A stretch of DNA of 64,000 nucleotides from Dehalococcoidia bacterium (lineage in GTDB: Bacteria; Chloroflexota; Dehalococcoidia; Lucifugimonadales; UBA1127), in the NCBI GenBank assembly GCA_965247615.1, contig OZ252022.1, forward strand, positions 2,093,395 to 2,157,394. Direction: 5' to 3'. The position numbers and the translations under genes were made by a program. The notes under the pieces were generated by a model. That model did no database searches. It was given only the letters and a program-made list of their open reading frames with translations, and had not been told where the DNA came from. Each line of letters opens with the position of its first letter. Positions within the stretch are counted from its first letter, which is position 1. Of the stretch, positions 5,396 through 64,000 are shown piece after piece.

Positions 5396-6334
5396 CTAGC
5401 CCACCTTGCGAAGCTTCTTCAGGCTCTTGAGCTCCCTAGGCGGGTCCAGATGCCTGCCGCCCATCGTGAATGATACCTCGGCCACGTAGATGTCACCGTG
5501 CGAGTCGACCGCGATGCCGTGAGGCGCCACGAACTTGCCGGGCTCCTCGCCCTCTTCGGGGTCCCCGAAGCGCGCCAACAGCTCGCCCTTCAGGTTCAGG
5601 ATGCTGACCCGGTGACCCAGCCCCGGCGCGTCGTCGAAACCGTTCAGCTCCCCAATGTACATGTTCAGGTCCGGCCCCAGCGTCATCCCGTCCGGCCGGT
5701 GGATGTTGTGCCACTCCGCCTGGAACTTGCCGTCCGCGTCGAACACCTGCACCCGGTGGTTCTCCCGGTCCGCCACATACACGTTGTCGTCCGCATCTAT
5801 GGCCACGTTGTGGGGCCGGTAGAACTGCCCCGGATCCACGCCGGGCTCTCCCCAAGACATGACGTGCCGGCCGTCCGGCGTGAATTTGTGCACCCGCGAG
5901 TTCCCATATCCGTCGCTAATGTACAGATAGCCCGTCTTGGGCGACACCGCAAGGTGTGTCGGACGGTTGAAGGGAAGCCCGCTCCACTTGTCCGCCGGCT
6001 TGTCCTCGCTCCCTATCGTCAGCAGCAGCTTCCCCTCCGGGTTGAACTGCGTGACCGTGTGGTGCCCGTCGTCCACGCAGTACACGGAGTCGTCCGGGCC
6101 AATGAACAGCCCGTGGGTCCGCGGCGTGAACAGCCCCTCGCCGAACGACCTGAGGAAGTTCCCCTCCCGGTCGAACACAATCACCGGATGCTCCCCACGT
6201 GTGAACGCAAAGACCCGGTCCTGCGAGTCCACCGCGACCCCCGGTGTCTCCTTCAGCGTCCAGCCATCGGGAAGTTTGGCCCACTCATCCAACGCCTCAT
6301 ATGTGAAGGCTCCCGTGCCCAACGTAACGCTCAT
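5396..6334 (-). CDS. NHL-repeat six-bladed beta-propeller protein (peptidylamidoglycolate-lyase-like)
   Basis: Repeated blades of the form ...VAVDSQDRVF.., VYCVDDGHH.., LYISDGYGNSRVHKF.., VYVADRENHRVQVFD.., IYVAEV. AAGGAG precedes ATG 6334. Confidence 0.8.
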   Translation of the reverse strand: MSVTLGTGAFTYEALDEWAKLPDGWTLKETPGVAVDSQDRVFAFTRGEHPVIVFDREGNFLRSFGEGLFTPRTHGLFIGPDDSVYCVDDGHHTVTQFNPEGKLLLTIGSEDKPADKWSGLPFNRPTHLAVSPKTGYLYISDGYGNSRVHKFTPDGRHVMSWGEPGVDPGQFYRPHNVAIDADDNVYVADRENHRVQVFDADGKFQAEWHNIHRPDGMTLGPDLNMYIGELNGFDDAPGLGHRVSILNLKGELLARFGDPEEGEEPGKFVAPHGIAVDSHGDIYVAEVSFTMGGRHLDPPRELKSLKKLRKVG

Positions 6335-6501
6335 ATCGCTTCACTCCTTGCCTTCTGCGTCGCCGCGCGCGATCATGCCGTCCCTCCGCATATCAGCGCC
6401 CGGCCGCTCAATTGTCTCGCCGGTCACCGGCATCCTAGAGACGGCCCCCGCCAATGTCAACCGACGCCCCCTCCATGGCCCATCTCTCCCACCCCCACTC
6501 T

Positions 6502-6583
6502 CCCGCTCATCGTGAACCGCCGAACCAAATGCGCGTCCGCCCACGCCGCCCACTCTCCCCTACTAGCCGCCGCGCTAGCGGCC
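6502..6583 (+). repeat. Intergenic repeat family, copy F (head + tail modules)
   Basis: CCCGCTCATCGTGAACCGCCGAACCAAATGCGCGTCCGCCCACGCCG...CTAGCCGCCGCGCTAGCGGCC. It aligns over about 80 nt with copy D (57996-58073). The 19-mer 6565-6583 is identical to 48001-48019. Confidence 0.8.
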
Positions 6584-7674
6584 TAGCCGCCGCTCCGCGC
6601 CAACTCCTCCGCCACGTACTCCTCCAGCAGCGCCAGGTTGGCCGGATAGGGGCGCAGCGTGTGCTCGTTGACCAGCCGCGCCACCCTCACGATGGCTCGG
6701 TTGTACGGCGTTGGAATCTCCAACTCCTCCGCCCGTTCCACCACGTAGCCGTTCAGCTGCTCCACCTCCATTGGCATGCCCCGTAGCGCGTCGTGGAGCG
6801 TGGACGGGCGCGTCACCCTCGTCATCGCCTTGGCCTGCTCCACCACCAGCTCCTCCAGGTCCGGCCTACTCCCCGCGGCGGCCTCCTTGACGTCCTGTGC
6901 GCTAAAGATGACCCCCACGCTCCCCCCAAAACCGCCGAACTTGATGCCCAGCTGCTCCCCCACTGCGATCGCCTCCGCCTGCAGCGCCCAACGCAGTCGC
7001 GCCGTGCCGTTCAGCGTCAGCTCCCGCGTGTCCCAGGACGTGATGGCCGCCAGGAGATTGCCTCCGCAGTTGACGATGAACTTGGTCCAGACTTCATCCA
7101 TCACGTGGTCGGAGACCTCGCACGTCCCCACGCTTTCGCGGAACATCTGCGCCAGCCCCTCCATTCTGGGCGTGGTCCCGCCCGAGTACTCCCCGATCAT
7201 GTATTCCACCGCCCCGGGCGTCGAGCCCCCGCCGTGCGTGCGATGAATGTGCCCCGGCTCCCACGTCTGGGCCGCCATCAGCGTCTCGCACCCGATGGTG
7301 CGCTCGGGCCCCACAACCTCCGCGATGATCGGCTCGTTGATGCCGTTCTGCACCGACACCACCATTGCGTCGTCTGCCAGGTACGGCCTGATCAGCTCGG
7401 CGTACTTGCGCGTGTTGTAGCCCTTCACCGACAGGACCACGATGTCCAGCTTCCCCTCAACCTGGTCGAGCTCATCCGTATGGAGCGCCGGAATCACGCC
7501 CTGCCATTCGGTCCGTGCTCCCGTGTACCCCTCGGTCATCAGGAGGCCCACCGTGCGTATGGCTTCGACGTGCGGCCTCCACGGATCGATGATCGTCACG
7601 TCATTGCCGCCCCGATGCAGGCCAATCGCCACGATGCCACCCATGGCCCCGGCGCCCATGACTGCGATCTTCAT
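6583..7674 (-). CDS. Ketopantoate reductase (PanE/ApbA) family oxidoreductase
   Basis: N-terminal Rossmann motif MKIAVMGAGAMGGIVA. Length of 363 aa and overall pattern fit the 2-dehydropantoate 2-reductase family; the substrate is not inferable. Confidence 0.8.
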   Translation of the reverse strand: MKIAVMGAGAMGGIVAIGLHRGGNDVTIIDPWRPHVEAIRTVGLLMTEGYTGARTEWQGVIPALHTDELDQVEGKLDIVVLSVKGYNTRKYAELIRPYLADDAMVVSVQNGINEPIIAEVVGPERTIGCETLMAAQTWEPGHIHRTHGGGSTPGAVEYMIGEYSGGTTPRMEGLAQMFRESVGTCEVSDHVMDEVWTKFIVNCGGNLLAAITSWDTRELTLNGTARLRWALQAEAIAVGEQLGIKFGGFGGSVGVIFSAQDVKEAAAGSRPDLEELVVEQAKAMTRVTRPSTLHDALRGMPMEVEQLNGYVVERAEELEIPTPYNRAIVRVARLVNEHTLRPYPANLALLEEYVAEELARSGG

Positions 7675-48000: not shown

Positions 48001-48159
48001 AGCCGCCGCGCTAGCGGCCGCGCTCATGGTGAGGACCTCGAACCAAATGGGCTGGCCGGGGCGGCCGCCCCGGTCCCACGCCCGCCGCCGGACCCACAAC
48101 AAACGTGGGGGGCGGCCCGCGCGCGGGCCGCCCCCCACAAAGCCGTCGCACTAGCGACC
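48001..48159 (+). repeat. Intergenic repeat family, composite copy B (tail - head - two GC palindromes - tail)
   Basis: AGCCGCCGCGCTAGCGGCC (48001-48019), head 48022-48052, CCGGGGCGGCCGCCCCGG (48056-48073), 34-nt palindrome 48105-48138, AGCCGTCGCACTAGCGACC (48141-48159). Confidence 0.8.
48092..48138 (-). terminator. Intrinsic terminator candidate for the minus-strand amidohydrolase gene
   Basis: Perfect 17-bp-arm palindrome GTGGGGGGCGGCCCGCG/CGCGGGCCGCCCCCCAC. On the minus strand it is followed by GUUUGUUGUGGGU. It starts 24 nt after stop 48162. Confidence 0.6.
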
Positions 48160-52097: not shown

Positions 52098-52625
52098 ATG
52101 GAAATCTTGAGCCTAGTCGACAAGCTGGAATCCTACGCTACCGCGAGTGCGCGCCTCCCGGGCACCCACAAGGTGATGATCGACGGCGACCGGCTCCTTG
52201 AGCTCGTCGACCAGTTCCGCGTGGCCATCCCCAAGGATGTCCGGGACTCCCAGGACATGCTCGCCCAGCGCGAAGCCATCATCAATCAGTCCCTTCTCGA
52301 CGCCCGCCGCATCAAGGCCTCCGCCGAAGAGGAGTCCCGCAACCAGGTCCACAAGCACACCATCTCCCAGGATGCTTCGGCCCGGGCCGAAGAAATCCTC
52401 GCGGACGCCAAGCACCGCGCCGATGCCCTCCTCCAGGACTCGCAACGCAAGGCCCGCGACGCCATGAGCGAGGCCCAGAGCTTCAGCGACGGCCGCATCA
52501 ACGAGTCCAACCGGTACGCCACGGAGACCCTCTTCCGCCTCGAGCAGCAGCTCGCCTCCGTCCTCAACGCTGTCCGCCGCGGCCTGGACAGCCTGGAGGA
52601 GCACCAGCGGGAGAAGGTCGCCTAG
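52098..52625 (+). CDS. Hypothetical coiled-coil protein (ATP-synthase-b/E-like heptad region)
   Basis: 175 aa after a strong RBS AAAAGGAGGAA. Charged, Ala/Arg/Glu-rich helical sequence. No catalytic motif recognised. Confidence 0.7.
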   Translation: MEILSLVDKLESYATASARLPGTHKVMIDGDRLLELVDQFRVAIPKDVRDSQDMLAQREAIINQSLLDARRIKASAEEESRNQVHKHTISQDASARAEEILADAKHRADALLQDSQRKARDAMSEAQSFSDGRINESNRYATETLFRLEQQLASVLNAVRRGLDSLEEHQREKVA

Positions 52626-55708: not shown

Positions 55709-55813
55709 CCTGGCGGCAGCCCCAGGCGTCCCGCTCACGCCCTTCGAGAGCCTCAGAGTGAGCGGCCTACCCAGAGCGCCGAGCCCCAGCAGGTTCCCCG
55801 CGTGGGATGGGGT

Positions 55814-55887
55814 CTCGCTCATGGTGAGGCCCTCGAACCAGAGGAGCGCCCTACCCCCACCCCCAGAATGCCGCCGCGCTAGCGACC
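55814..55887 (+). repeat. Intergenic repeat family, copy C (head + tail)
   Basis: CTCGCTCATGGTGAGGCCCTCGAACCAGAGGAGCGCCCTACCCCCACCCCCAGAATGCCGCCGCGCTAGCGACC, 106 nt after the polA stop. Confidence 0.8.
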
Positions 55888-56259: not shown

Positions 56260-56294
56260 CCGCTCATCGTGTGGCACTTGAACCACTTGAGCGG
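56260..56294 (+). repeat. Intergenic repeat family, copy E (head module)
   Basis: CCGCTCATCGTGTGGCACTTGAACCACTTGAGCGG. 7-bp outer stem CCGCTCA/TGAGCGG and inner GTGG/CCAC. It lies 51 nt after the fmdB stop. Confidence 0.7.
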
Positions 56295-56608
56295 CGGGCG
56301 GCGGAGTCCCCAGCATTCCCGGGGACAGCCTCCCATAGCGATGCCCCTGAACCAACCAACCGGCGGGGCGCGGATATCCCCCGTAGCGGCGGGCCTGAAA
56401 CCCTCCCCCATCCCAGGGCGCCCGCCCGCAGCCACACGCGCGGTCCCCTGCCGGCAAACGTAGCCAACCATGGACAGGCCGGCTGCGTCAGCCCTACGCC
56501 GATCGGCACCTTCATCGACCTCGACAGCACGCCGGCGTCGGCGGAGGACGGCCAGGCCAACCCCAGCAACCGCAAGTACATCCTCGACTGCGCGCATAAC
56601 CTGGGGAA

Positions 56609-57943
56609 ATGATCAACGGCCTCGGCGACCTATCCCGGATAGGCGCAGCCTTTCGAAGAGGGGGTAGCACCGTGGATCGGCTGAGAACACTGCTTCTTGT
56701 CATTGGGATTGTTGCCGTCGCTGTGGTCGTGGCGGGATACCTTTTCTTGATGCTCGACCAGGCCAACGCCGACTTGTTGGAGACTACAGCTAGCTTGCAA
56801 GAGACCACAGCTGACTTGCAGGAGACCACTATCGAGCTTGAAATTCGGAAGACGTTGAACGTCAACCTTGAGTCGGAGAACAGCGCGTTGCTATCCCAGA
56901 AGGAAGGACTTGAGTCGGCAAGGAGCGCCCTGGAGGTCTCCCTGGGGGATGCTCTGTCGGAGAGCGCCGGGCTCCAGGTAGACCTCCGCGTCGCCAACGC
57001 ACAGGCCCAGGAGCAGGAGGCGCGGTACGAGAGGCTCAGCTCAGAACGCGACGACCTGGCCGCTCAGCATGAGGACCTGGGCTTCAGGCACTCGGACCTG
57101 CAGGTCCAGTACGAGAAGCTCGGCTTACAGCGTGACGACCTAGCCGCTCAGCATGAGGACCTGGGTTTCAGGCACTCGGACCTGCAGGCCCAGTACAAGA
57201 AGCTCGGCTTACAGCGCGACGAGCTGGCCGCCCAGTTTGAGGACCTGAGCTTCCGGCACTCGGAGCTGCAGCTGGCGGTGGGAACGGTGGACGACCTGAG
57301 GACCAAGGCGTCTGCTCTGCGCGACGAGATCGAGGAGCTCGAGGAATGGCGGCGCCCGCTCATCCTAGCGCTGGATAGCGCCGCGACCTCGGGCTTCAAG
57401 TGCACCGGAAGCATGGAGCCGACAATAACGTGTCTGGACCGGGCCACATTCCTGACCAACTTCAGACCGGAGGACATCGTGGTCGGCGCGACCATCTCCT
57501 TCAATCCCAACTGCTGGGAAGATGGGGCAAGCGGCCGAGGGGCTGCCCACCGAGTGGCGGACATCGAACTGAGGGGTGGCATCTACCACTACTGGCCCAA
57601 GGGCGACGCGAGCGACGAGCCTGACGGCTGCTGGATACCCCAGACCAGCGTTCGGGGGTACATTATCGAGATCCACAAGAACGCCGTGCCGGAGAACGCC
57701 GAGCTGCGCGACCAGGTGAACGCTGCAAGGGCAGCCTTTGTGGCCGCCCGGGAGGCCTATCGCGATCTGCTGGAGGGGTACTGCGGCTCCCGCGATCCGG
57801 ACGGGTGCTATTTGGACCCGCGCCCGTATGCCGAGGTGGACGAAGCGTACGAGAGGGCTCTCGAAGCACAAGAACACTGGCGCTGCTGGTACGAGAACGC
57901 GGGGAAATCGGAGTACCCCGGGCACATCCCCCACGAGTGCTAG
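56609..57943 (+). CDS. Membrane-anchored coiled-coil protein fused to an ER/archaeal-type (S26B, SipW-like) signal peptidase I domain
   Basis: TM LLLVIGIVAVAVVVAGYLFLML; about 230 aa of coiled coil with 28-aa tandem repeats. C-terminal boxes are TGSMEPT (Ser), EDIVVG, AHRVADI (His) and PKGDASDEPDG. The start is ATG 56609 (ATGA overlap with an upstream ORF) or GTG 56672 (7 nt after GAAGAGGGGG). Confidence 0.75.
   Translation: MINGLGDLSRIGAAFRRGGSTVDRLRTLLLVIGIVAVAVVVAGYLFLMLDQANADLLETTASLQETTADLQETTIELEIRKTLNVNLESENSALLSQKEGLESARSALEVSLGDALSESAGLQVDLRVANAQAQEQEARYERLSSERDDLAAQHEDLGFRHSDLQVQYEKLGLQRDDLAAQHEDLGFRHSDLQAQYKKLGLQRDELAAQFEDLSFRHSELQLAVGTVDDLRTKASALRDEIEELEEWRRPLILALDSAATSGFKCTGSMEPTITCLDRATFLTNFRPEDIVVGATISFNPNCWEDGASGRGAAHRVADIELRGGIYHYWPKGDASDEPDGCWIPQTSVRGYIIEIHKNAVPENAELRDQVNAARAAFVAAREAYRDLLEGYCGSRDPDGCYLDPRPYAEVDEAYERALEAQEHWRCWYENAGKSEYPGHIPHEC
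57050..57277 (+). repeat. In-frame 84-bp tandem repeat (about 2.7 copies) inside the coiled-coil region
   Basis: Units 57050-57133 and 57134-57217 (about 90% identical; DDLAAQHEDLGFRHSDLQxQYxKLGLQR), plus a diverged third unit from 57218. Confidence 0.9.
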
Positions 57944-57995
57944 GAGAGAGGGAAGACCACCCATGGGCACTAGCTGCTGTGTTTGCCCAGGGGCT

Positions 57996-58073
57996 CCCGC
58001 TCATGGTGAGCCCCTCAAACCAAATGAGCAGCCTACCCACGCCGTCTCTCCTCCCCCGCTAGCCGCCGTGCTA
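57996..58073 (+). repeat. Intergenic repeat family, copy D (head + tail)
   Basis: CCCGCTCATGGTGAGCCCCTCAAACCAAATGAGCAGCCTACCCACGCCGTCTCTCCTCCCCCGCTAGCCGCCGTGCTA. Its end coincides with the complement stop codon of the TIGR01906 gene. Confidence 0.8.
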
Positions 58074-58850
58074 ATGGCTCCTCCCCCGCACCCAACGCAG
58101 CCCCAGCCACCCACCCACCACCAGCACTGAAGCCTCCACCACCGTCAGCGCCACCACCAGCATCGTCGCAATGAACCAGAACCCCTCCGGGAACATTCGC
58201 ACCAGGAAGTCCCTCTGCGGGTCCAGCTGCCAGAAATCGTTGCTGAAGCTGATCACGTGGAACAGGTAGAAGATCCACGGAAACGCGACCGCCAGCGCCA
58301 GCCCACTTACGACGACAAGCCCCACCGTCAGCGCACCCCCCCATAGCGCGCTTTTGGCCAGCCGCTCGGCCAGCTCGCGCCGGCGTGCCGCAAGCACCGC
58401 AAGCACGCAGACCAGCAGAAAGCCTCCCGCTATCTGCTGCGTCAGGAACACCCCCTGCACCAGCCCCTTTACGTCCCGCATGTGGATGACCTCCCGTTCG
58501 TTGTACAGCGGCCGGTCAAACACCGTTATGTCCAGATACTCAGCGTCCGAGCTCCAGTACTCGATGATCTCACCCGCCACCCGCCGCAGCTCCTCCTCCG
58601 GGACCCCCGTCGCCCTGCTGATCTCGTACCGCTCGAACCCGTACGAGTACAGCCACGACCCGTTGAACCCCGCCCGCAGGTTGCTCGTCACCAGGAACGG
58701 CGGCACCGCTAGGATGAAGACCACCGCCAGCACCTGCACTAGCGCACCCGCGAGCCTCCGACGCCTCATCGCCGACGCCGACTGCGTCCCTGCGTCTTGT
58801 TCCATGTGCTCCTCTTGTTCCACTTCCATGGCCCCAGTATAATGCTTCAA
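58071..58850 (-). CDS. TIGR01906/DUF1461-family integral membrane protein (Lit-like)
   Basis: …NLRAGFNGSWLYSYGFERY…HMRDVKGLV…FHVISFSNDFWQLDP…DFLVRMFPEGFW… family pattern. The track start is TTG 58850. ATG 58829 sits 7 nt after a TATACT box (possible leaderless start). Confidence 0.8.
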   Translation of the reverse strand: MKHYTGAMEVEQEEHMEQDAGTQSASAMRRRRLAGALVQVLAVVFILAVPPFLVTSNLRAGFNGSWLYSYGFERYEISRATGVPEEELRRVAGEIIEYWSSDAEYLDITVFDRPLYNEREVIHMRDVKGLVQGVFLTQQIAGGFLLVCVLAVLAARRRELAERLAKSALWGGALTVGLVVVSGLALAVAFPWIFYLFHVISFSNDFWQLDPQRDFLVRMFPEGFWFIATMLVVALTVVEASVLVVGGWLGLRWVRGRSH

Positions 58851-59736: not shown

Positions 59737-60523
59737 CTACATCTCCACCCTCCCGCGCAGCCGCGCCTCCAGCGCGTCCGCCACCGCCTCCGCAACCTCC
59801 GCCGCGGCCCCCCCGAGCACCCGCCGCGCTAGCGGCCGATGCGGCCGCATGTGCACCACCCGCCGCGGCACACGCCCCAGCGCCGACGCCGCGCCCAGCG
59901 CCGTCTCCATGTCCCCCAGCTCGTCCACCAACCCCAGCCGCAGCGCCTGCCGGCCCGTGAACACCTCCCCCGTCGCCAGCTCCCGCACCCGCCCCTCATC
60001 CATCCTCCGCCCCCGCGCCACCGCCTCCACAAACGCGTCGTAGGTGTCGTCGATCAGCGCCTGCACCCGCTCCAGCTCCTCGTCCGTCGGCTCCCGCCAC
60101 GGCTGCAGCAATATCCTTCAGCCGTCCCTGCTTGCTCACCGACATCTGCACCCCCAGCCGCTGCAGCAGCTGCGACAGGATCGGTCGAAGCAGGATCACC
60201 CCAATCGAACCCACCAGCGCGTCCGGGTTCGCCACTATCCGCTGCGCCGGACAGCTCGCGTAGTACGCCCCCGACGCGCCCACGCCACGGATGTACGCCA
60301 CCACCGGCTTCTCCGACGCCACACGCCGGATGCTCGCGTACAGCTCCGCCGAACCGGGCGCGCCGCCCCCCGGCGAGTCCACGTCCAGCACCACGGCCTT
60401 GATCCGCCGGTTCTTGCGCACGCTCTCCAGCAGTGGCACGTACACACTCGGCCGCACTGCCGTGCCGATGGCGCCAAACAGCTCCACCACCGCTATCCTC
60501 CCCCGTTGCGGGAGTCTGACCAT
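59737..60523 (-). pseudogene. sppA: Signal peptide peptidase SppA (36K type, S49) interrupted by a 1-nt frameshift
   Basis: ORF 59996..60589 (MVRLPQRGRIAVVELFGAIG…DVDSPGGG…GVGASGAYY…SVSKQGRLKDI) and ORF 59737..60111 (LQPWREPTDEELERVQALIDDTYDAFVEAVARGR…GLVDELG) are consecutive SppA segments in different frames. The junction is at about 60109-60113. ATG 60523 follows GGAAGGAGG. Confidence 0.8.
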
Positions 60524-60660
60524 CTTGCCTCCTTCCGTTGCTCCCTGTTTGTGGGGCATTGTACAATCGCTGGCGTACCCTGGGGTCATGCACCCGCGCT
60601 CACCCAGCCGGCCCCCGCGAAAGTGTGCTCGGTTCCAATCCTGTCCCGCCAGGTGCCATC

Positions 60661-62781: not shown

Positions 62782-62983
62782 AGGCGGGGTGGGGGGCCGT
62801 CGGAGGCAGGTGGGCGGCGGACCTGGTTTGAATGTTTGCGCCTGTATGATAGTCAAAGCTTTTTTTGCGGCTATTGAAGCTGAAGGGTGCAAAAAGGGTT
62901 GATTGATTGCTTTTGGGAGTCGCGCGGTAGCTTCGGCGTGGGTTGGCGTTTTGACTGTTGTTGCGGCGGGGGGCCGCCGGCAC

Positions 62984-63161
62984 GACGGCCTTGTAGGGGG
63001 AGGGTTGCGGGGTCGCAACGGGGGTGGGTAAGGGAATGAGGGTTGTGCAAAGGTCTCCTTGTGCAGGTCTGTTGCAGGAATTGTAGGGCGTATGGTCCTG
63101 CACGGGCAACGGGACGGTGGCACAGCGGGTCGCTGGCGTGACGGCCTTGTGGGGGGAGGGT
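62984..63161 (+). repeat. G-rich non-coding region with 22-nt direct repeats and G-quadruplex-type tracts
   Basis: GACGGCCTTGTAGGGGGAGGGT (62984-63005) and GACGGCCTTGTGGGGGGAGGGT (63140-63161). GGGGGTGGGTAAGGGAATGAGGG at 63020-63042. Hairpin GTTGCG-GGGT-CGCAAC at 63004-63019. Short tandem TTGTGCA(A)AGGTCT units at 63043-63075. Confidence 0.85.
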
Positions 63162-63222
63162 GTGCAGGACGGCGCGGGGCGGGGCATCCCCCACGACCCG
63201 CCCAATGCTGTATATTCTCCCT

Positions 63223-63366
63223 ATGACCACCTACCCCCACGTAGAGCACTACCACGAGAAACTGCGCCAGCTCATTGAGTTCGGCGGCTCCGACAACGAG
63301 CAGAGCATCCGCCGCGCCTTCGAAAGCTGCCTGACCGCCTACTGCCGCGAACACAGGGAGAAGTAG
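63223..63366 (+). pseudogene. 47-codon N-terminal fragment resembling the start of large fused restriction-modification (N6-adenine methyltransferase) proteins
   Basis: MTTYPHVEHYHEKLRQLIEFGGSDNEQSIRRAFESCLTAYCREHREK*. From memory, the …GGS.NE.SIR.AF..LL..Y pattern matches such N-termini. It ends at TAG 63364-63366, where sequence character changes. TATATT at 63211-63216 lies 6 nt before the ATG. Confidence 0.4.
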
Positions 63367-63579
63367 GCATCCGATTCCTACAGAGTATTAGTGCATGAGG
63401 CGGGCCACGTCTTGGGAATTCGGGGGATGGTGGGCGCAGTGGCTCAAGACTTAAATCATCCGCTGTTGATGGATTCGGTAGTGAGCTACGGCTCGGAAGA
63501 AGGATACACCTGTTCGTCTACACCCTTTGACGTCATGGCAGTTTATGCGATATATCAAACCAGGTTGCCCGTGCATTGA
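63367..63579 (+). pseudogene. Isolated zincin (HExxH) metalloprotease fragment
   Basis: …YRVLVHEAGHVLGIRG…DVMAVYAIYQ… The frame is open from the preceding TAG with no credible N-terminal domain or start. It is far too short for a protease. Confidence 0.45.
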
Positions 63580-64000
63580 ATCTGACGATCTCGCGCACGT
63601 TGATTGTTGTGTGGCTGGCGGTCGTATGTCTCACATCCGGCCTAATCTGGTCTTGTAAACCGGACACGTCCCCTGCGGAAGAGGCTGCTGTGTCCTCTAC
63701 CGAAGAGGCTGCTGTGTCCTCTACCGAAGGGGCTGCCACATCCCTTGCCGAAGGGGCTGCCTCCTCTCCTATCGACAAGACTTCTTCCATACCTGATACG
63801 CGTGATTCATCGGATATTGTAGCCCCCGACCACCTTTCCCTCATCAGGTGGGCCATCAAGCAACCCTGCGATATTCCGTTCGTGGCAAGGGAGCACGGGT
63901 ACTTCGGGGGGTTCCTCCATTGGACTCCGGACGGCGAGCAGCTGGTGTTTGACGACGATGACGTGATCGCTCTTGTAGATGAAGCAGGTCGGGAGGTGCG
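63576..64000 (+). CDS. Putative lipoprotein with Ala/Glu/Ser-rich tandem-repeat linker; continues beyond the right window edge
   Basis: Own translation from TTG 63576: MNLTISRTLIVVWLAVVCLTSGLIWSC|KPDTSPAEEAAVSSTEEAAVSSTEGAATSLAEGAASSPIDK…FLHWTPDGEQLVFDDDD… (TolB/propeller-like WxPDG). No in-frame stop up to 64000. Lower GC than the rest of the window. Confidence 0.6.
   Translation, partial: MNLTISRTLIVVWLAVVCLTSGLIWSCKPDTSPAEEAAVSSTEEAAVSSTEGAATSLAEGAASSPIDKTSSIPDTRDSSDIVAPDHLSLIRWAIKQPCDIPFVAREHGYFGGFLHWTPDGEQLVFDDDDVIALVDEAGREV
63678..63770 (+). repeat. In-frame 24-bp tandem repeat (two perfect + two diverged units)
   Basis: GAAGAGGCTGCTGTGTCCTCTACC x2 (63678-63725), then GAAGGGGCTGCCACATCCCTTGCC and GAAGGGGCTGCCTCCTCTCCT. 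Confidence 0.9.

Follow-up and report, generated by a model that had tools for sequence, protein, structure and literature searches.

A probable stalk-mounted S26B-like peptidase family in uncultured Dehalococcoidia

In Bacillus subtilis, the signal peptidase gene sipW is encoded together with its own substrates in the tapA-sipW-tasA operon. SipW (NF046067) and archaeal signal peptidase I (TIGR02228) are small enzymes of the S26B type (the TIGR02228 profile has a length of 158), with the catalytic domain straight after the transmembrane (TM) helix. SipW is described as an archaeal-type enzyme in a bacterial host with a dedicated substrate set (PMC10269814). The human S26B enzymes SEC11A and SEC11C (PDB 7p2p, 7p2q) have the triad Ser56/68-His96/108-Asp122/134 and a salt bridge Asp116/128-Arg97/109, and they work within a multi-subunit complex, with a TM helix beside the catalytic Ser and an active site that abuts the membrane (bioRxiv 10.1101/2020.11.11.378711). 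Here we describe a gene of a Dehalococcoidia bacterium (GenBank assembly GCA_965247615.1, contig OZ252022.1) that lies on the forward strand at 56609-57943 of a 64,000-nucleotide stretch (contig positions 2,093,395 to 2,157,394; hereafter the window, to which all positions refer). Its product has the same S26B signature as SipW and the archaeal enzymes, and in the family to which it belongs the catalytic domain does not directly follow the TM helix. The family differs from SEC11 in a coiled coil of 108-284 residues between TM helix and head, in eight conserved cysteines and in a helical extension of ~85 residues, and it is unlike SipW in its long stalk, in a score below the curated cut-off and in the lack of a conserved neighbouring gene.

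Two other types of known system share aspects of this layout. EnvC, PcsB, CwlO and RipC, which are controlled by FtsEX, are extracytoplasmic proteins in which about 200 residues of coiled coil are followed by a C-terminal hydrolase. Their heads are peptidoglycan hydrolases (LytM, CHAP or NlpC/P60), and each docks on FtsX through a coiled coil folded as an antiparallel hairpin. In Pfam scans the target protein showed none of these head domains, and ftsEX did not appear in any neighbourhood that was inspected. In Staphylothermus marinus, a coiled-coil stalk anchored in the membrane carries the protease STABLE at a fixed height, part of the way up, below the S-layer canopy. STABLE belongs to the subtilisin family and attaches non-covalently to the stalk, a right-handed undecad four-helix structure of 70 nm that is the S-layer protein (tetrabrachion) itself (PMC5744192). 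As an analogy, STABLE on tetrabrachion is the nearest functional precedent for the protein described here, in which stalk and head form one polypeptide, the coil is built of heptads and the head is of the S26B type; the two are not homologous and share neither sequence nor fold. The earlier note, made from the letters of the window alone, could not place the architecture in a described family. In agreement, no published description of a stalked S26B architecture was found in literature searches, and the only name in the sources searched was "hypothetical protein".

The earlier note had read the C-terminal part of the protein as an endoplasmic reticulum/archaeal-type domain with a Ser-His active site and had named profile search and structure prediction as the means of checking it; both returned an S24/S26-like fold with Ser and His aligned. 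The target open reading frame (ORF) contains all four expected boxes, CTGSMEP, EDIVVG, AHRV (with H314; residue numbering throughout is that of the 444-residue ORF) and PKGDASDEPDG. The beta-rich peptidase core spans 57401-57688 (+), from C265 to about residue 360, as seen in the TIGR02228 match, the SEC11C/A alignment, the fold search and the model. NCBIfam model TIGR02228 matches residues 266-356 (E = 2.3e-5), and all 32 diverse members of the family that were tested match it as well (best E = 1.7e-11), 11 of them together with the SipW model. A PDB search with the single sequence gave repeat and coiled-coil matches only, and myosins crowded out other matches when the stalk was part of the profile, so a profile of the domain alone was rebuilt. 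Against all PDB sequences its top matches were SEC11C (1e-6) and SEC11A (7.8e-6), with GSMEP, CLD (in place of RGD), HRV and GDx5D in register over boxes B-E. An AlphaFold2 model of the head, built with the family alignment, had a mean predicted local distance difference test (pLDDT) of 91.4 and a predicted template modelling score (pTM) of 0.80, and Foldseek placed SEC11A (7p2p_A) first among PDB structures (probability 1.00), then Staphylococcus aureus SpsB, LexA and UmuD; the ranking was unchanged with the full-length model. SEC11A and SEC11C were thereby the best matches in profile as well as fold. Aligned identity to SEC11A is about 20-23%.

The residues that make up the SEC11 triad and salt bridge have counterparts in S268, H314, D339, D333 and R315. 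Ser268, the predicted nucleophile in box B, is encoded at 57410-57412 (+) and aligns with Ser56/68. His314, the predicted general base in box D, and Arg315, the counterpart of Arg97/109, are encoded at 57548-57553 (+). Box E, G-D333-x5-D339, lies at 57605-57625 (+), where D333 corresponds to the structural Asp116/128 and D339 to the triad Asp122/134. Among 203 unique domain sequences, which are ~40-60% identical overall, S268, H314, D277, D339 and G332 are invariant and D333 is kept in 202, which extends the Ser/His reading of the earlier note to the triad Asp; in the alignment of 32 members, R315 and V316 occur without exception. As far as sequence can tell, this conservation is the pattern expected of an active enzyme, and activity is predicted. 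The core is followed at 57689-57940 (+) by a family-specific C-terminal extension with helices at 361-392 and 404-433, a tail SEYPGHIPxxC and four of the eight conserved cysteines, for which a search against PDB sequences gave noise only (serum albumin, E about 0.6-3). The assignment of the C-terminal domain to a divergent S26B-like peptidase is solid. By the rules of NCBIfam and Pfam it is a relative and not a member, because its match lies below the curated cut-off.

Between membrane and head lies a coiled-coil stalk of ~200 residues (D50-R249; 56756-57355, +). The coiled coil had been noticed before, at a length of about 230 residues that now comes down to about 200. L, E, A, D and Q are abundant in the stalk and Pro occurs once. 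Its hydrophobic residues recur with a period of 3.5 residues, a signal above the 99th percentile for 1000 shuffled sequences, and AlphaFold models residues 24-181 as an unbroken helix. Tandem Repeats Finder (TRF) detected two repeats in it. One is a 21-bp unit at 56780-56829 (+; 2.4 copies), which is the LQETTA heptad repeat reported earlier. The other is an 84-bp unit encoding 28 residues, or four heptads, which had been given as 2.7 copies at 57050-57277 and is placed by TRF at 57018-57271 (+) with 3.0 copies and 86% matches. A conserved Gly-Thr pair (G225-T226; 57281-57286, +) coincides with a shift of heptad phase and a modelled helix break, and divides the stalk from a neck helix of 24 residues that ends in R-R-P-L-I-L. 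The P-L-I-L motif and a loop of 12-15 residues lead into the catalytic domain (57356-57400, +); P250 and L251 are nearly invariant, and model confidence in this stretch is low.

The length of the stalk varies in steps. Relatives that are >91% identical have 395, 423 or 451 residues, with two, three or four copies of the 28-residue unit. Stalk length was taken as the distance between the aromatic residue at the end of the TM helix and the Pro of P-L-I-L. Among 68 unique stalks anchored by regular expressions, 66 were equal in length modulo 7. In a more inclusive set with an alignment-defined anchor, 119 of 158 stalks fell into one class modulo 7 (p = 1e-103), and the minority classes had offsets of +4 (20 stalks) and +1 (12 stalks), the classic stutter and skip. 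Stalk lengths in the family run from 108 to 284 residues (median 178), and the commonest, 164, 178, 192 and 206, are steps of 14. The rise of a helix is 0.1485 nm per residue; at this rise the stalks would span about 16-42 nm (median 26 nm) if they are straight rods, and that of the target protein (206 residues from Tyr44 to Pro250) about 30.6 nm on the same condition. Counted back from the head in 159 stalks, one phase holds Leu at 49-68% of its positions, a partner position 3-4 residues off holds L, N or H, and this a/d seam stays in the same phase for at least 140 residues. A one-residue shift of register occurs 30-35 residues ahead of the head, at the GT motif, where AlphaFold breaks the helix (224/227). 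Paralogues in the same genome usually have unequal stalks, for example about 146/156/192 or about 159/164/197 residues (estimates good to about 3 residues). Since register is kept, evolution and repeat slippage between strains alter stalk length almost exclusively in whole heptads. A single uninterrupted canonical coiled coil would behave in this way; a flexible linker would not, and an EnvC-like hairpin fits less well. In this family the length of a coiled coil has evolved by quantised steps, a clean case from nature that may be of use in the design of spacers and rulers.

The stalk starts at a predicted N-terminal signal-anchor helix, with the N-terminus inside (T27-L49; 56687-56755, +). The 23-residue hydrophobic segment is read as an anchor and not as a cleavable signal peptide because it runs into the heptads and no small-x-small site follows it. 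A hydrophobic segment at the N-terminus was found in all 139 complete members (among 176 proteins with the Ser motif; median start at residue 7), and the median distance from TM end to catalytic Ser across the family is 193 residues. Eight cysteines of the head are conserved at >=92%. Disulfide pairing was read from the correlated loss of cysteines over the 203 domains: C302 and C341 were lost together in 11 domains and singly in 3 and 2, C392 and C400 together in 7 and singly in 0 and 3, and C426 and C444 together in 12 and singly in 3 and 4, while C265 and C275 were never lost and co-loss across pairs was 0-3. Four disulfides are the simplest reading of this paired loss, and they would place the head outside the cytoplasm. 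One homologue bears on the other end of the protein. P0065 (642 residues; locus L002, 8001-9929, on chromosome OZ220748) has a DnaJ domain with its HPD motif N-terminal to the TM helix, together with a Cys-rich stretch and a long linker ahead of that helix, and because of the DnaJ domain its N-terminal side is taken as cytoplasmic. This layout would couple an extracellular stalked peptidase to the cytoplasmic Hsp70 system.

To the extent sampled, the family is large and restricted to one group of bacteria. A word-indexed search returned 86 full-length relatives, and an exhaustive phmmer search with the domain alone gave 376 clusters at 50% identity (295 at E <= 1e-10), in which the peptidase domain is nearly always C-terminal and preceded by 150-300 residues. 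A profile search gave 262 clusters at 90% identity, with the same architecture as a rule. A scan of GTDB species representatives found 83 relatives, of which 80 loci were kept, and all 80 come from Dehalococcoidia or Chloroflexota metagenome-assembled genomes (MAGs). Contig and MAG names, our only source here, suggest sponge, coral, deep-lake and marine members. Genomes often carry two to four paralogues at separate, syntenically stable loci, and the closed chromosomes OZ252225, OX638292 and OZ220698 have 3-4 copies each. One of the four paralogues on OZ252225 (locus L056, around 6001-6709) is split into a 165-residue part without the Ser motif and a 220-residue part with the head, probably a pseudogene or a frameshift. 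We regard the family as an unannotated one, found so far only in Dehalococcoidia/Chloroflexota, that descends from S26B enzymes and has added a stalk, a cysteine set and a helical extension. Hundreds of "hypothetical proteins" of Dehalococcoidia can now be annotated, and the family provides a handle on the poorly known envelope of these widespread, mostly uncultured bacteria.

The surroundings of the family members are stable and varied. The target gene is flanked by polA and a Zn-ribbon gene, with genes for a Lit-family membrane protein, mazG and an S49 peptidase downstream; the locus is syntenic in a 98%-identical relative (L086), in which the target gene is 99.4% identical at the nucleotide level. 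Other members have the stable contexts Rieske–X–folD–rpsO–pnp, hemW–X–selB, glmS–X–CoA-transferase and prs–X–purA, where X is the family member, and a few lie in transposase-rich regions. The commonest neighbour occurs at 11 of the 80 GTDB loci, and those that recur are housekeeping genes by which separate synteny groups can be told apart. Two larger ORF clusters, with 31 and 24 loci, are antisense shadow ORFs of the family gene itself. Because the contexts are stable and varied and share no neighbour, the members appear to be old, vertically inherited paralogues without a dedicated partner gene. A motif scan of 1.1 Mb of family loci found no canonical LepB, a sample far too small to judge genomes.

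The explanation that we favour, with slightly better than even chances as a whole, is a protease that stands off from the membrane on its stalk. The protein would be a type-II (N-in, C-out) membrane-anchored extracytoplasmic endopeptidase. Its head, a divergent S26B domain with a Ser268-His314-Asp339 triad, probably four disulfides and a helical hairpin extension, would top a heptad coiled coil that runs without interruption from the TM helix and is probably a parallel homo-oligomer. Such a rod would display its heads roughly 25-30 nm above the membrane, with a height of the active site of about 30 nm here and of 16-42 nm across the family. The substrates would be exported proteins or proteins of the envelope, cut in the zone from membrane to S-layer, and not signal peptides at the membrane surface. 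In this chain, an extracytoplasmic, stalk-mounted S26B-like enzyme is very probable; for a stand-off processing protease rather than a signal peptidase the chances are somewhat short of even. We infer the topology, the oligomeric state, the extension of the rod, the proteolytic activity and the substrates alike. In the cultivated Dehalococcoidia genus Tepidiforma, cryo-electron tomography showed about 40 nm from membrane to S-layer, including 20-30 nm of peptidoglycan, and unexplained complexes on both faces of the S-layer (PMC10284905). In an envelope of this kind, a stalk of ~30 nm would let an enzyme anchored in the membrane reach across the wall zone or past it. S26 enzymes are thought to be membrane-dependent, and a stalked family would imply either use independent of the membrane or a novel way of substrate delivery.

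Several observations weigh against this explanation. Against TIGR02228 the target scores 24.3 bits at full length and 26.1 bits with the domain only, compared with a curated cut-off of 51.85; Pfam, searched with the complete protein and with the isolated domain, gave no family at E <= 10 beyond coiled-coil noise, and there was no precomputed S24/S26 Pfam match among ~260 homologues. The Foldseek scores are weak (E = 1.7e-3, TM-score 0.38-0.50). A break at residues 182-188 of the monomer model, where confidence is low, makes a folded-back stalk possible, and the positive-inside signal is weak, with 1.76 K+R before and 1.29 after the TM helix (15 positions each). The cysteines may form a zinc site instead of disulfides. 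The envelope dimensions are those of Tepidiforma and may not apply to the host, and the carriers of the family are known so far only as uncultured organisms. Last, no conserved partner or substrate gene was found in eight inspected neighbourhoods or by ORF clustering of the 80 GTDB loci.

A stronger version of the stand-off explanation treats the stalk as a molecular ruler, in which S26B-type proteases would be placed at genetically encoded heights that are set by whole-heptad changes. We offer this tentatively and consider it rather unlikely. If true, the maturation or turnover of proteins between membrane and S-layer would be coded by height, a principle not described for bacterial envelope proteases, and the catalytic machinery of signal peptidases could work away from the membrane. 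The suggestion in the earlier note of a long rigid spacer fits the heptad-quantised stalk; the maturation, shedding or ruler roles named with it would be extrapolations from sequence.

Among the alternatives, the one that survives best is a dedicated SipW-like signal peptidase that would remove the signal peptides of particular secreted proteins at the membrane, while its stalk, bent or stretched out along the membrane, would serve to oligomerise or localise the enzyme. All S26B boxes are present, the closest relatives in sequence and fold are true signal peptidases, SipW itself is a precedent in B. subtilis (PMC10269814), and the AlphaFold monomer could bend at 182-188 and 225-226. The position of the head is harder to reconcile with this alternative: the SEC11 active site abuts the membrane, whereas here 108-284 residues that keep register intervene in every member. 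The four probable disulfides and the extra helical hairpin are not found in the aligned region of SEC11, and no substrate-like gene is conserved next to the family. On balance we consider a signal peptidase at the membrane unlikely.

A self-processing module of the LexA type would cut its own chain, for example at the P-L-I-L/small-residue site, which would shed or activate the head and turn the protein into a factor that can be released, or into a sensor. The autoproteases LexA and UmuD (S24) share the beta-fold with the head and are among the weaker fold matches, and the nearly invariant P-L-(I/V/L)-(L/I/V), 12-15 residues before the nucleophile segment and often followed by A, G or S, lies where model confidence is low. 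LexA and UmuD cleave themselves with a Ser-Lys dyad, at an Ala/Cys-Gly site, whereas the family has the S26B signature, with the His of HRV and GDx5D: the general-base position is an invariant His, no Lys is invariant in the family, and the candidate Lys in PKGD varies among K, Q and R. The residue after PLIL is not conserved either (it can be A, G, S, R, N, E or Q). We hold self-processing to be decidedly improbable.

Still less probable is a head without catalytic function, which would bind or build, and make the protein an envelope spacer or an adhesin on a rod. The tightly constrained, quantised length of the stalk and the sub-threshold matches to curated peptidase models would suit such a role, but nucleophile, general base, both box-E Asp residues and the salt-bridge Arg are all conserved. 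An artefact of assembly or gene calling, or a recent foreign, phage or defence gene, to which the somewhat low GC and third-position GC (GC3), the flanking repeats and the location of some paralogues near transposases and restriction-modification genes might point, is hardly credible, as the architecture recurs in hundreds of clusters, many assemblies and closed chromosomes, which refutes an artefact (the earlier note had allowed for a chimera, and 376 clusters at 50% identity speak for a genuine fusion), and the locus is syntenic in L086, has no PHROG or IMG/VR match and stays within 1.6 standard deviations (sd) of the window in composition. The null searches were, in detail, no PHROG match for the target protein, no relative in a scan of IMG/VR, and in PADLOC only coiled-coil noise to the SMC-like LmuB and JetC.

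The ORF as first listed has 444 residues from an ATG at 56609 to the stop at 57941-57943 (+), and its boundaries and motifs held to within a few bases, apart from the start, which probably lies 21 codons downstream. The identical protein in public gene calls (P0002) has 423 residues, homologues begin 3-8 residues ahead of the TM helix, and a GTG at 56672 lies 7 nt downstream of a strong Shine-Dalgarno sequence, AGAGGGGG, at 56656-56664; on these grounds the real coding sequence is probably 56672-57943 (+), with 423 residues. A sigma-70 promoter scan found none, and the sole terminator-like site lies inside the target gene, at chance frequency. The gene has a GC content of 0.629 and a GC3 of 0.792, compared with means of 0.665 (sd 0.022) and 0.857 (sd 0.042) for the 43 likely genes of the window. 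The low values noticed earlier are thus real and modest, at about 1.5 sd, and the gene is no outlier; a foreign origin from composition was rejected on this basis. GC skew across 56500-58000 is slightly positive (+0.03 to +0.09), compared with -0.1 to -0.3 in same-strand flanking genes such as polA, which probably reflects coding content rich in Glu, Asp, Ala and Gly.

Repeats bracket the gene, as had been reported for 56260 and 57996. They belong to a palindromic intergenic repeat of ~35 nt with the core CGCTCATGGTGAGSCCCTCRAACCA(AATGAGCG), of which the window has three close copies and one degenerate copy, where none is expected by chance. The copy just downstream of the stop spans 57991-58043, with the exact core at 57998, and the copy in the 460-nt upstream spacer (56260-56295) is degenerate, with 4 mismatches. 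Further copies at 48021-48045 and 55809-55861 (55816) mean that the flanking repeats are not specific to the target gene. The repeat forms hairpins, the region downstream of the target gene folds stably (z = -3.7), and the element is possibly terminator-like or REP-like (repetitive extragenic palindrome); it has no Rfam match, and neither Rfam families (at gathering thresholds) nor tRNAs were found when the complete window was scanned.

The next gene downstream is convergent (58071-58850, -) and encodes a Lit-family lipoprotein intramolecular transacylase (PF07314, E = 1.5e-31); this linkage is not kept at other family loci. Beyond it, the gene for an S49 (SppA-like) signal-peptide peptidase (59737-60589, -) is split into overlapping frames, 59996-60589 and 59737-60111. 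Compared with the intact 261-residue gene of L086, to which it is otherwise 98.7% identical, it has one extra T near 60110-60111 (GGATATTGCTG against GGATATGCTG), either a real frameshift, which would make it a pseudogene, or an assembly error. Upstream, a 175-residue ORF without a Pfam match, charged and rich in Ala, Gln and Leu, lies directly after coaD and before polA at 52098-52625 (+), and it is conserved in that place in L086. Over 62800-64000, the last stretch of the window and one with no convincing ORF, tRNA or Rfam match, GC content drops (about 0.68 to 0.56) and GC skew becomes positive.

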